A DNA stretch of 64,000 bases from a virus (lineage: Duplodnaviria; Heunggongvirae; Uroviricota; Caudoviricetes), in the IMG/VR virus record IMGVR_UViG_2529293141_000015, positions 1,630-65,629 of that record. One strand, given 5' to 3'. Shown here piece by piece: positions 14,301 to 17,300 of the stretch (positions are counted from its first letter, which is position 1; each line of letters starts with the position of its first letter). The position numbers are program-made.

Positions 14301-17300
14301 GTTCCGTAGTGAGGTTTGAGCATGACAAATCCTCCGGTTAATTAATCCAGATATTTAATTTAATCCCCGATATGTGGTCGGGGATGGGGTTAATTAAAGA
14401 TTTACGTTGAAACCAAAGCGGGAAGACTTTTCTGATGTACGGGAAATATCCAGCAATTTACGGCGCATTTCTTCCGTCAGATGCTTGAAGGCGTTAAATT
14501 CGGCGACAGCGGCGTCAACGTTATAGCCTTTGCTGTGTAGCTCATTGAGGATGCGCATAGTTGGGCTTGGCATATCGAAGAGCACGGAAGCATCAAGGCT
14601 GATAACCTTGCGATCAACATAGTTCATCGTGGCGTAGGGATGGTTATCTGAGAACCACGAGAGGGGGTAGTTGATGTTCATCGCAGGAGAAGACAGGGCC
14701 AGTTGTTTCTGTTCCCATAGTTGTTTTTCCATGCGATCGAATTCAGCAATGTAGGCTTCTTTGAAAGCAGCGGCTTTTTTACCAGTGAATCCCATCACCA
14801 GGAAGACGAATCCGTTTTTGGTGATTTGGTACATTGGGCGTTGTTCGCCTTTGGCGTCGGTGTAGGTAACGTCCGCAAAATTGCGGGCGTTAAATTCCGT
14901 AGAACAATCCATCAATCGGATTTTTTTTAAAACGTCGTCGTGCCGCTTGTCAAAAAATTCAGCAATAGCAATAGACGTTGTGACAACGCGACCATTGGTA
15001 ATGGTGATTTCAGGTTGAGAAAGGGCAGGGATAGTAGCCATAATGGCAGCCTCCTTGATTGGTGATTGAGAACCACCGCAGGAGGTCCTAAGCTCGCTGG
15101 CGGTGGACTGTACAGGGTTAGGACTACTGGCAATCAAGGGAACCAGCCCGACCGAAGTCGGCCCCATACAGCCCACCATTGATAAGATGTGCGTGTATGT
15201 CGATACAAAAAAAGACGCTGGCGCGTCTGTATCGCCTCGATTGTCAGCGGGGCCCTAATCCCGACACCCGTTTTATAAGGTGTTCGCCAAATATAGCCCC
15301 GACATCACACGCAGTCAATACCGTCCTTTCTCGGAAATGCTTTGGCGGTGCCGCCTGCACCCCAAAACATTCCCTGTATTTGGTCAGCGCCAACTTCCTG
15401 CCAGTGTTGCCCGTTCTCACGCCGTTCTCGCTCTCGCGCGGGGATACTCTCTCATCGACCGGATCGCACCCGATGATACAGCACGTTTACGTGTAGGGGT
15501 CTAAACAGGTCATTGACGCTGTAAAGCTCCAGATTGTTAAAGAGCATTTTGCGGCGGGTTAAGTCGCGCCGTACGACTGATTTATGTAGCCCTGTGTAAG
15601 GGCGCGATGTTTCTGGCTTGAAATAAATATAACTTGCGGTGATTTTCATGTAAATACCGTTGGTGCTTTTTGAGGGCGAGAAATTATTACTTAACTGATT
15701 TTTAAAGTGATTTATTTTTTAAGGGGGCAGATAACAGGAGGGGATATGCAAAGAAAAACCCGGCGCATGGGCCGGGCTATTTATCTGGTCCTGTTCTCAT
15801 TCAGTAGAGTAGGGGCCAAGAAATCGCACTCCGTTGAAGTGAATAAGATGAGAAGGTGCATCAGCCACCCATACCTCTGTTTCCCATGCGATTTCACCAA
15901 GATATCGCCCCATGATGGAGCGATTTGGAAAAGCGGTCACATAGACAAGTCCGGCTGTTGATCCGGCAAACAGCCTGGCAAGCTCAGCATGCCGCTTCCC
16001 ATCAACCGGTCCATGACTGGTGACAGACTCAACCAGTAGCAGCCAGTTTTTCGCAGTAAAATGTAGCACCACATCTGGCATTTTACCGTGTGAATCCACA
16101 TCAACACCTAGCCCGGCCAGCAGTGGAGCGTCGAAGTAGCCCCACTTTTCGCCAGTGTCGCCAGCATAGACCAGCACGCTACCCGGAGCAAAACGTGGGG
16201 CGAAGTCCTCTATTATGGCACGGATAAGTTCGCTGTGCTCGCCGGGACTGAGGGTTATTTGCTGGCCCGCAGCAATTTCAACAGGGATACGATTCTGTTC
16301 GCGCTCCTTAGCATAGCGGGTAACCAGCGTTTCACGCTCGGCTAAATAGGTTGCAAGGCTATCGTGCCATGCCGGGCTGCCGAAAGTGCGTAGCATGGAC
16401 AGAGCAGCAGGTTCGATCTGATAAACAGCCTTCGGGCTGTTCACTGGGCGATCGGGCTTGTCCGGATTGTAGAGGGCTACTCCAGCAGCGCAGAACTGAT
16501 GCATAGACTGGCGGCGGAATGTCTCACGAGTATTGGGTGCGTAGACCTTGCCGTAGTGCTCCCGAACCCAATTCATGATTGGTGTAATGCCCACAAGCGG
16601 ATTTTCCGCGTCGGCCCATGCTTTTCCCGGTGTGAGGTTCAGGAGTGCCAGCAAACACAAAGCAGAACGCTCATTCTGCTGCGCTCTGGGCAGGCCTAAG
16701 GATGCTATAATTTGCTGAGCGGCCTCAATATAATCATTTTGGTTGTTCATGCAGTCAGAGCTCCTAGCTTAGCGTCAATATGTTCTTGCGTGAGAGTTTC
16801 TTGTTGCATAGCCCACTTGCCAAGCTCTATCAGAGTGTCACGGCTTGGGTACTTAATCATCTTGAGGTCGGTTGCATTGACCTGTGTATGCCCGTTGAAG
16901 CGACGGAAGTACTTATCCACTGCGGTAGTGTTCAGGAACACGGCCAAGCCACGGGCCAGCGCCTCGGGTAACCCATGTTTGTTCTCATGAAACACGTTCA
17001 TGTGATTTTCAAATCCCAACACTGAATACTCACTGAAGGTAGCAGGATCAACGACGCTTGCTACCACTCGGCGCTTTTCCTCCTTCGACGAGAAACGACG
17101 CACCACACAATAAAAACCGTTCGGGTAAAGCCACTTTTCTGTCTCGTCGTTGCGCATGATTGCGTTGGGTTTCTTCAAACCTTCCACAGGCCAGACAGTG
17201 CTACTCATACTCAAATGGCTCGGGTAGATCAGGGGAACAGTTCCTTCTTCTGGCATGCTGCGCAAATGAGCTTTCAGTCGGAAATCAACTATCGGTCCGG

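Follow-up and report, generated by a model that had tools for sequence, protein, structure and literature searches.

Layout of the early-left region

The window, the 64,000-nt stretch of viral DNA analysed here, belongs to an Eru1-type Stx2a phage of the O104:H4/TL-2011c kind. Its immunity region is defined by a minus-strand gene for a cI-like, LexA-family repressor (18311..19024; a 237-aa open reading frame with Pfam Peptidase_S24 and HTH_3 matches), just upstream of which, between the cI-like gene and cro, lies an operator-like site, ATCACCTTTGGTTATA (19030-19045). Between cI and PL, in the position of rexAB, the minus strand carries a PstI/BsuBI-type restriction-modification pair (15797..18216), made up of a methylase (18216..16747; Pfam Eco57I methylase) and an endonuclease (16750..15797; Pfam BsuBI_PstI_RE and BsuBI_PstI_RE_N), both named also from the RefSeq annotation of an identical stretch. 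A minus-strand intrinsic terminator upstream of PL (15757..15778; AGCCCGGCCCATGCGCCGGGTT then TTTCTTT, with eight pairs, six of them G-C) closes the cI/restriction-modification transcript. Identity between the window and the RefSeq locus L001 is confined to the surroundings of the query; elsewhere, for example at the Q gene, the two are not colinear.

Leftward of this terminator, the minus strand reads from a PL-like promoter through boxA and a non-coding leader of ~578 nt with one strong terminator to the first gene. Our promoter scan found the PL-like sigma-70 promoter TTTACA-17-TATATT exactly where an earlier note on this sequence had placed it (15654..15626, minus strand), matching ten of 12 consensus positions. 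The note had also described a lambda-like operator half-site in the promoter spacer, resembling those of OR, and this too held: the spacer contains the operator ATCACCGCAAGTTATA (15643..15628, minus strand), whose pattern was otherwise found only in the OR region, with ATCACC-N5-TTATA giving a single other exact match in 64 kb, at 19030-19045. When one mismatch was allowed, the operator pattern matched four times against an expected 0.81, a count reached by none of 100 shuffles, and the string CACCGCA was found again in the OR region.

The first leftward protein gene (14394..15041, minus strand) encodes a Rha-family regulator or antirepressor-like protein (Pfam Phage_pRha, 1.2e-30; PHROG transcriptional-regulator and anti-repressor families; RefSeq name ‘Rha family phage regulatory protein’). 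Its first credible start is the ATG at 15041, with AAGGAGG ahead of it and in-frame ATGs upstream at 15179 and 15167, and the leader is therefore ~578 nt long. The length of ~580 nt and the terminator given in the earlier note were thus borne out; the idea of a plain leader was not, as the distal half consists of an isrK-family small RNA (sRNA) gene and a C4-like RNA. The isrK-family gene, including its intrinsic terminator, occupies 15208..15283 on the minus strand (Rfam RF01394, full length, 60.3 bits against a gathering score of 50). It follows a promoter-like site, TTGACT-17-TATATT, placed to start isrK (15290..15318, minus strand; ten of 12 consensus positions; ending 7 nt before the Rfam match), and the terminator scan placed its terminator stem, AGACGCGCCAGCGTCT then TTTTTTT, from 15228..15213 onward. 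Because this gene has a terminator of its own, the ‘leader terminator’ is the isrK terminator. The C4-family antisense-type RNA (15096..15183, minus strand; Rfam RF01695, full length, 78.9 bits against a gathering score of 45) overlaps the in-frame upstream open reading frame of Rha. The features that mark an isrK locus (a score above gathering, a promoter-like site, an intrinsic terminator and an antirepressor-like gene downstream) were all found, as were, for C4, a score above gathering and a position upstream of an ant/Rha-type gene.

The isrK-uORF-antirepressor mechanism has been published for Gifsy-1 (PMC4825925). With the isrK-orf45-anrP module of Gifsy-1 and the c4-icd-ant (immI) module of P1, the window shares an isrK-family sRNA equipped with a terminator and a promoter-like site, a C4-family RNA that overlaps an upstream open reading frame and an antirepressor-like Rha gene; it differs from them in that its cassette lies within the PL operon, directly after the boxA RNA, in that the upstream frame is in phase with the Rha gene and in having a second copy of the isrK/C4 cassette 11 kb away. 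By analogy with isrK-orf45-anrP, the isrK/C4 cassette (15318-15096) would add post-transcriptional control of the Rha-family antirepressor-like gene, for which the isrK promoter may also provide a PL-independent source of transcripts lacking boxA.

A structured RNA with boxA at its edge

The leader is thus a composite, in which a conserved RNA module precedes the known isrK/C4 small-RNA module. An exact rrn-consensus boxA, TGCTCTTTAACAA (15546..15534, minus strand), lies ~73 nt from the predicted transcript start, in agreement with the ~75 nt of the earlier note, and has just one exact occurrence in the 64-kb window (by our own arithmetic, ~0.002 for an exact 13-mer turning up by chance when both strands of the 64 kb are counted). 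It fits the functional consensus GYTCTTTAANA (PMC5725501). It is not an isolated signal: it forms the 5′ boundary of a conserved structured RNA that the earlier note had missed.

Just 5′ of boxA, folding of the upstream flank with RNAfold gave a hairpin, CGGCG...CGCCG (15552..15571, minus strand), in the ‘boxB-boxA’ order of rrn operons, so that the window shows the helix on the 5′ side of a consensus boxA that characterises rrn-type signals and for which there is a structural rationale (PMC3177189). Most of 25 variants of this flank fold a hairpin at or adjoining boxA, built from differing sequences (stems GGCGG/CCGCC, GCCAGAC/GTCAGGC, GGAGAC/GTCTCC and ACGGCA/TGCCGT); none was found in three of them, the related variants L057, L121 and L124. 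The majority of relatives carry GCTTTTTAACA in place of the window’s boxA, a C-to-T change at one of the two positions that were mutated together in a non-functional suhB boxA (PMC5725501), so that not every member of the family can be presumed to bind NusB/E strongly.

Downstream of boxA lies a four-way-junction RNA of 137 nt (15385..15521, minus strand), defined by a comparative consensus structure, covariation and a covariance model. Helices P1 (15521-15513 with 15393-15385), P2 (15509-15504 with 15402-15397) and P2b (15498-15496 with 15412-15410) enclose three minus-strand hairpins: P3 (15482..15493), CACG-UAAA-CGUG, the 12 nt labelled ‘nutL core’ in the phi80 genome record; P4 (15452..15476), UCAUCGG...UCGAUGA with a near-invariant apical GCGAUCC; and P5 (15417..15444), with an inner CGC-GAGA-GCG stem-loop. 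Alignments identify the stretch beyond P1 (15323..15384, minus strand) as the tail of a phi80-type leader, ending in CGCCAAAGCATTTCC (15347-15333), where the resemblance to phi80 gives way to the isrK module; of 69 related loci, 34 contain the AAAGCATTTCTCCCGCATCAGCGGG... cassette.

All 42 consensus pairs are standard in the window, where the consensus structure has a free energy of −41.4 kcal/mol. The covariance model gave one match in the window (198 bits, 15561..15377), and Rfam itself was empty there: a search at E-values up to 10 returned isrK, C4 and noise only, with zero matches over 15284-15620. Among 18 hand-picked sequences, 93.4% of cells were paired, against 29–40% in slid controls, and 16 of the 42 pairs had changed on both sides, against two to five in the controls. 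Pairing reached 97.8% of cells in 73 model-aligned sequences (18/42 pairs compensatory) and 97.5% in an independent metagenome set (11/42 compensatory); none of 500 shuffles attained the observed pairing and covariation values. A single-sequence fold of the window RNA was modestly better than shuffles (z = −2.1) and recovered P1, P2 and P4 with P3 and P5 mispaired, for which reason it was set aside and the comparative structure used.

P3 is the most variable hairpin in the comparative alignments (compensatory variants CACA/UGUG and CGCA/UGCG), P4 and the junctions being invariant. The apparent invariance of P4 is inflated by a first viral scan pattern that lay within it, a bias partly corrected by a metagenome scan whose pattern left the apex free and in which 69 of 70 matches kept the apical sequence; one P4 pair is U-A in the window and C-G in phi80, a compensatory change. 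In P5, both-sided changes were seen in five of six outer and one of three inner pairs (alignment A5), and in four relatives deletions of 7–9 nt leave a shorter hairpin in place of the inner part. Judged on this comparative sequence evidence, the module at 15571-15385 is a real, conserved structured RNA.

More than 100 enterobacterial phages, phi80 among them, have this module in common. Throughout phi80, HK225, Klebsiella KO-TP1, Edwardsiella Edno5 and 104 viral contigs, similarity starts exactly at boxA and ends after P1; boxA and junction always occur together as one module with fixed spacing, and promoters, operators and downstream genes differ among the carriers, the first genes downstream being very diverse and mutually unrelated. 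The junction RNA is absent from Rfam and lacks annotation in the 224 of 5,426 complete Escherichia coli genomes that carry it. A contig scan with a G+C-rich pattern gave at least four true matches (three Enterobacter species and Huaxiibacter) amid abundant chance matches in Actinobacteria, which swamped the scan and leave the taxonomic range under-sampled.

The element is followed by terminators: 45 of 56 loci have at least one strong terminator within 2.5 kb of it, and the density of strong intrinsic terminators on the same strand is 0.73 per kb over the first 1.5 kb downstream, ~11-fold that at 1.5–6 kb (0.066 per kb), with about 0.02–0.03 per kb on the opposite strand. The isrK terminator lies ~160 nt downstream of the element in the window. 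Neither a second element copy in the 64 kb (one boxA, one covariance-model match) nor a strong rightward terminator between PR and the Q-like gene was found, which suggests a single copy on the side that needs it.

Relation to known antitermination systems

N/Nun-type proteins (the N proteins of lambda, 933W, P22 and phage 21, together with HK022 Nun, phi80 ‘N’ and HK225 gp40) were searched by tblastn against the whole window, with a best E-value of 0.14 (0.76 for the 98-aa phi80 ‘N’). The earlier note had reported no recognisable N gene and had called for a search for N/Nun relatives near PL, where we found neither an N homologue nor an arginine-rich open reading frame. The absence is real and agrees with the literature, although it is not new, having already been published for Eru1-type Stx2a phages, which lack N, cII and cIII and are held to require an ‘alternative mechanism’, none being named (PMC4122784, PMC8044961). 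The note’s suggestion of an N-independent or unrecognised mechanism stands in its first half, an N-independent route still being the best reading; the second half needs amending, because the element is homologous to phi80 ‘nutL’ and so not wholly unrecognised.

That homology extends over hairpin, boxA and junction just downstream of PL, as a phi80-type nutL would: phi80 ‘nutL’ (GenBank M11919 ‘nutL regulatory signal’; JX871397 ‘nutL boxA’ and ‘nutL core’) is 93.7% identical to the window over 189 nt and scores 209 bits with the same covariance model, against 198 for the window. In both, the element lies 60–75 nt downstream of an operator-controlled PL and has terminators downstream. They differ in boxA, exactly that of rrn in the window and TGCTTTTTAACAA in phi80, and in what follows, the window having no phi80-‘N’ gene and, unlike phi80, the isrK/C4/Rha cassette as downstream neighbour. 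The 1985 phi80 record sets a 278-nt ‘nutL regulatory signal’ over the element, together with ‘N protein’ and tL1; phi80 records mark either 9 + 12 nt or this 278-nt block and give no structure.

The put sites of HK022 and HK639 resemble the element in being promoter-proximal structured RNAs in the PL leaders of N-less lambdoid phages. The first ~47 nt or so that HK639, phi80 and HK225 have in common in the PL leader are followed in HK639 by its annotated ‘putL-like antiterminator RNA’, in the slot of hairpin, boxA and junction; there, as in the window, a single copy stands in the left operon with terminators downstream. However, put is about 70 nt long, has two stems and no boxA and acts without host factors (PMC9378689), whereas the window element is about 190 nt long, with a four-way junction and boxA at its 5′ edge. 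RNAs of the HK022 put type work in cis on RNA polymerase, at its β′ zinc-binding domain, and need no protein factors. Homology to put, raised by the short strings GAACGGC/GAACGG and GGCAA, was rejected: alignment gave no further similarity, and the covariance model found no match in HK022 or HK639 at E-values up to 10. Rfam searches of HK022, phi80 and HK225 indicated that Rfam has no put family.

As at a lambda-type nut site, boxA lies near the early promoter and is followed by RNA structure and then by terminators. No lambda-type boxB (a hairpin with an A-rich, GNRA-like loop, only a few nt past the 3′ end of boxA) was found in the window, where the nearest hairpin, P3, starts ~40 nt after boxA, forms one arm of the junction and varies freely in stem and loop; nor did boxA and model searches of the 64 kb find a nutR-type second site in the rightward operon. 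Lambda nut has a cognate arginine-rich N in its operon, which the window does not, and the window’s boxA is closer to rrn than to lambda. The rrn leader signal (boxB hairpin, boxA, boxC) likewise joins the 13-nt boxA, exact in the window, to a hairpin on its 5′ side and needs no phage protein, depending instead on NusB/NusE/SuhB; unlike it, the window has no recognisable boxC, and a conserved four-way junction follows boxA instead of rRNA. Complexes formed at rrn-type boxA act chiefly against Rho and are weak against intrinsic terminators, so any resistance to the latter would have to come from the structured RNA.

Candidate functions of the module

We infer an antitermination role, comprising Nus recruitment, persistence on polymerase and terminator read-through by the element, and regard the hairpin-boxA-junction RNA as the best candidate for the means by which these N-less phages pass their early terminators. 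As our leading working model, which we nonetheless rate at a little under even odds, the module at 15571-15385 is a cis-acting, Nus-assisted antitermination RNA that acts independently of phage protein. It would substitute in this phage family for N plus nutL: once repressor is inactivated, the module would be transcribed from PL, boxA and its adjoining helix would recruit host NusB/NusE and other Nus factors, and the structured RNA would stay tethered to the elongating polymerase, stabilising a termination-resistant complex without a phage protein. PL transcripts could then pass the isrK terminator 160 nt on, and later ones, to reach rha, kil, gam, recT, exo and beyond.

The partner might instead be an unrecognised antiterminator of a kind other than lambda N, phi80 ‘N’ being a possible example, which would be encoded at another place in the phage and act at a nut-type site. 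The phi80 records do annotate nutL here, with an ‘N’ gene and tL1 just downstream, and P3, with its A-rich loop, is loosely boxB-like; the two Edwardsiella phages with the most divergent element copies also encode a P22/933W-like N. Yet phi80 ‘N’ has no Pfam match and belongs to a PHROG of unknown function, has no homologue in the window and is present in only seven of ~104 element-bearing loci, while five loci have RNA 100% identical to that of phi80 over 191 nt without the gene, and the first genes downstream are mutually unrelated across loci, whereas true N/boxB pairs co-vary. The supposed boxB, P3, is the most variable hairpin beside an invariant P4 and junctions; moreover, the N of Edno5 has a canonical boxA-boxB nutR, and that boxB is absent from its left operon. 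A near-invariant RNA beside variable proteins points, on comparative grounds, to a host partner rather than a phage protein, and we consider a dedicated phage antiterminator unlikely; if N-dependence was demonstrated in the 1985 phi80 work, then at any rate the copy in phi80 relies on a phage protein. Another reading, to which we give similarly little weight, is that boxA alone matters for elongation, keeping Rho off a lengthy untranslated leader as it does in rRNA operons and CRISPR arrays, and that the junction is a sensor or attenuator, a stability or processing element or a trans-acting leader RNA. The leaders are indeed long and untranslated (about 300–580 nt), an anti-Rho role of the boxA/Nus complex has been documented beyond rRNA (PMC5725501), and strong terminators close behind the element would fit just as well with a short leader RNA as the product. 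It sits poorly with boxA and junction travelling as one module at fixed spacing, with the element standing in place of put in an otherwise homologous leader and with the lack of any Rfam riboswitch or sRNA match at E-values up to 10. Flanks diverge immediately after P1, and hence no conserved expression platform follows the junction; a riboswitch or attenuator was rejected because neither a conserved terminator nor such a platform is found there.

That the module is a decaying nutL remnant, functionless since the loss of N, would fit the missing N and the truncation of the phi80-type leader tail where the isrK module was inserted; near-invariance and compensatory changes in the >100 phages and 224 E. 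coli genomes, and its presence in the deposited complete genomes of phi80, HK225 and Stx phages, make this very improbable. Those carriers are viable phages. Least credible of all, and rejected, is a small peptide encoded by a 31-codon frame from an ATG overlapping boxA (15547) to a TGA at 15452. The frame exists in the window, and two of the three differences from phi80 are synonymous in it, but these two substitutions form opposite sides of a single pair in P4; the ATG is absent from phi80-type copies, relatives have one- and two-nt indels within the frame, conservation extends 70 nt beyond its stop, and inspection revealed no Shine-Dalgarno sequence.

Returning to the antitermination model, its boldest form, which we advance only tentatively, is that hairpin, boxA and junction make up a self-sufficient ‘RNA N’, which would join N/nut and put as the third class of device for early antitermination in phages. 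It would draw on the host rRNA Nus machinery through boxA, with the folded RNA replacing a phage protein against intrinsic terminators, and would gate early-left expression in O104:H4-type Stx2a phages, phi80 and many enterobacterial prophages. The outbreak strains O104:H4 of 2011 and O103:H25 of 2006 both had Stx2a phages of the Eru1 type, and the question of the ‘alternative mechanism’ in N-less phages now has a concrete, mutable target of 190 nt, easily testable in K-12 because it is shared with the laboratory phage phi80. Even if its function differs, a strongly covarying four-way-junction RNA heading an early phage operon merits description. If the model is true, the element would represent a novel route to a processive antitermination complex, assembled on a host-type boxA and a folded RNA with no protein adaptor, as well as a new family for RNA databases, and would bear on how the induction of toxin phages proceeds.

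The early-left region

Over the 761 nt that surround the finding, the window is 97–100% identical to Stx2a-converting phages like P13374, TL-2011c, phi191 and PA2; prophages in 325 complete E. coli genomes, out of 5,426, match at the same identity. Leftward transcription follows the minus strand of the window, on which a lambda-cI-like repressor gene (19024..18311) precedes a PstI/BsuBI-type methylase and endonuclease pair (18216..15797) in the position that rexAB holds in lambda. This pair has its own terminator (15778..15757, minus strand) ahead of the PL region and is probably a defence moron, expressed in the lysogen and co-transcribed with cI. 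Left of the finding, on the same strand, a Rha-family gene is followed by genes resembling kil and gam; in a closely related prophage, RefSeq also annotates RecT and exonuclease genes still further left.

The RefSeq prophage of E. coli 2012EL-2448 is 100% identical to the window over 15040–15800 and elsewhere not colinear with it; its Q-type antiterminator is different (276 aa) and its second antirepressor module sits at shifted positions, which shows mosaicism among close relatives. On the plus strand of the window, a 177-aa Q-like ORF (23812–24345) is followed within 24333–24896 by a promoter-like site, a strong terminator (24391–24410) and an STnc100 sRNA (full-length match at 24683–24896, plus strand, 198 bits), presumably the late PR′/tR′ leader region.

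All the features described in the earlier note were found: a PL-like promoter (TTTACA-17-TATATT, 15654..15626, minus strand), a lambda-like operator ATCACCGCAAGTTATA in its spacer, an rrn-type boxA, a leader terminator (15228..15213) and no N gene. The operator pattern ATCACC-N5-TTATA has only one other exact match in the window, between cI and cro. The boxA, TGCTCTTTAACAA, occurs as one exact copy (15546..15534, ~73 nt from the predicted transcript start); it is the exact rrn 13-mer and agrees with the functional consensus GYTCTTTAANA (PMC5725501). A tblastn search of the window with the N proteins of lambda, 933W, P22 and phage 21, HK022 Nun, phi80 ‘N’ and HK225 gp40 gave no match better than E = 0.14, and there is no arginine-rich ORF in the vicinity of PL. 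This lack of N is already known: N, cII and cIII are missing from this phage type, which has been taken to imply an alternative mechanism (PMC4122784; PMC8044961).

The ~580-nt stretch ahead of the first well-signalled start codon (15041) had been read as a plain leader. Its proximal half is a conserved boxA module; the distal half is, according to Rfam, an isrK/C4 cassette, with an isrK-family sRNA (15283..15208, minus strand; 60.3 bits, gathering score 50) and a C4-family RNA (15183..15096, minus strand; 78.9 bits, gathering score 45). The leader terminator is real and belongs to isrK. A promoter-like TTGACT-17-TATATT ends 7 nt ahead of isrK and may express the Rha gene without the boxA; the C4-like RNA overlaps an upstream ORF in frame with that gene. 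Gifsy-1 isrK-orf45-anrP has the same arrangement, and the window’s cassette is a further case of it; in Gifsy-1, read-through of the isrK terminator yields an untranslated mRNA that the short IsrK RNA activates in trans (PMC4825925). A second minus-strand cassette (3920..2972) comprises a promoter-like TTGACG-18-TATATT (3920..3891), isrK (3884..3811, 53 bits), C4 (3785..3702, 70 bits) and an antirepressor-like ORF of 225 aa (3649..2972), which over its C-terminal half shares homology with the Rha-family protein encoded at 15041..14394; the prophage thus holds two paralogous sRNA/antirepressor modules.

A structured RNA around boxA

Comparative analysis of the proximal half (15571–15385, minus strand) gave the layout hairpin, boxA, ~12-nt spacer and four-way junction, in which helices P1 and P2/P2b enclose hairpins P3, P4 and P5. 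In a MAFFT alignment of 18 hand-picked sequences, free of any fitting to the model, 93.4% of cells were paired and 16 of 42 consensus pairs had changed on both sides (slid controls 29–40% and 2–5 pairs). In two further sets the sequences were fitted to the model, a step that biases the result toward the structure; these gave 97.8% and 18 of 42 (73 model-aligned sequences; controls 26–42%, 2–6 pairs) and 97.5% and 11 of 42 (70 metagenome sequences; controls 29–43%, 2–4 pairs). For each alignment, 500 shuffles yielded no pairing or covariation score as high as that observed. In the window itself, every one of the 42 pairs is standard. Edwardsiella phage Edno5 has entire stems rebuilt (P2 CCUGUU/GGCAGG becomes GUAAC/GUUAC), and in four relatives 7–9-nt deletions leave a shorter hairpin in place of the inner part of P5, a change that excludes a coding explanation for the conserved stretch. 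Variation is almost absent from the P4 apex GCGAUCC and from the junction strands, the apex being retained in 69 of 70 matches to a scan pattern that left it free. Most of 25 flank types have a helix at or adjoining the 5′ side of boxA, in differing sequences.

Rfam has no family over this stretch. With a covariance model, the window gave a single copy, whereas HK022 and HK639 gave none. When 15660..15284 served as query in a sensitive search, the matches were in phi80, HK225, Klebsiella phage KO-TP1 and Edno5 (78% identity), always with the repressor region on one side and the early-left genes on the other. Pattern scans added 104 confirmed homologues in viral contigs (70 distinct) and 70 more in metagenomes; 224 complete E. 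coli genomes, out of 5,426, contain the core, which carries no annotation in any of the matches listed. A genome-collection scan, largely overrun by chance matches in G+C-rich genomes, gained at least three Enterobacter species and Huaxiibacter. The hairpin-boxA-four-way-junction RNA is a genuine structured RNA, widespread and so far uncatalogued.

A module among unrelated neighbours

Near-identity in the alignments begins at boxA and extends ~170 nt downstream. Carriers differ in their promoters, operators and downstream genes, which are unrelated. Most family members have GCTTTTTAACA as boxA, a C-to-T change from the window; the affected position is important in other boxA elements (PMC5725501). 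Beyond the element, a portable cassette of small hairpin and Shine-Dalgarno, AAAGCATTTCTCCCGCATCAGCGGGTAACGACAGAGGGTAAGGnnATG, stands in 34 of the 69 related loci ahead of the first gene, these genes being unrelated (for example phi80 locus L002, 3290–3352, and L013, L032 and L085); the window keeps only its first 13–15 nt (15333–15347), at the junction with the isrK module.

The first ~47 nt of the PL transcript, CCATCGAAACGAAACATCGAyAGCTGAGsGAAGTTAGCCAGCGGCG, are almost identical in HK639 (L127, 34313–34386), phi80 (L002, 2940–2990) and HK225 (L003). N-less HK639 carries an annotated putL-like antiterminator RNA in the exact slot where phi80 and HK225 have the hairpin-boxA-junction, and the exchange behind a shared leader is a natural module swap.

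Readings of function

The most plausible reading, which we hold tentatively, is a phage-protein-independent, Nus-assisted antitermination signal: acting with Nus factors, the element would let PL transcripts pass the isrK terminator. Strong same-strand intrinsic terminators number 0.73 per kb over the first 1.5 kb beyond the element against 0.066 per kb further downstream, and 45 of 56 loci have one or more within 2.5 kb (median distance ~430 nt). Beyond that of isrK, the window has further minus-strand terminators at 5782, 2958 and 638; no strong rightward terminator was found from PR to the Q-like gene, and the window’s only copy of the element is the leftward one. A caution on this reading is that rrn-type boxA/Nus complexes are chiefly anti-Rho. 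A less likely rival is that boxA alone protects against Rho, the junction having a separate role.

The earlier note’s proposal of N-independent or unrecognised antitermination is partly borne out by PL and its operator, the boxA and the lack of N; the RNA, being homologous to the loosely annotated phi80 nutL, is not wholly unrecognised. GenBank M11919, which we take to be the Tanaka & Matsushiro 1985 record, places a 278-nt ‘nutL regulatory signal’ over the element, besides ‘N protein’ and tL1, and the phi80 genome record has ‘nutL boxA’ and a 12-nt ‘nutL core’ that is P3. If the 1985 work showed that phi80 ‘N’ is required, then the copy in phi80 relies on a phage protein. A nut site for an unrecognised protein is the other, less likely rival: phi80 ‘N’ (98 aa; no Pfam match, PHROG of unknown function) is encoded in only seven element-bearing loci, five loci without its gene have RNA 100% identical to that of phi80 over 191 nt, and the genes after the element are very diverse. 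Near-invariant RNA beside interchangeable proteins argues that its partner is a conserved host component.

Two Edwardsiella phages with the element also encode a P22/933W-like N and have a canonical boxA-boxB nutR, its boxB missing from their left operon. Edno5 (L006, 690–750 and 3280–3504) has a canonical nutR, CGCTCTTTAAAAA followed by boxB GCGCCGATACAGGCGC, and a 75-aa protein, annotated only as hypothetical, with the arginine-rich motif NSRQRRAMRYRA and a C-terminus like that of P22/933W N. Its left operon has the boxA/junction element in place of a second boxB; element and N system look like independent modules in these phages.

NEB10-beta and other laboratory cloning strains with a phi80dlacZ lysogen in their ancestry contain the phi80-type element, 94% identical to that of the window. 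It can thus be studied in standard K-12 backgrounds, and existing RNA-seq may already show the RNA.
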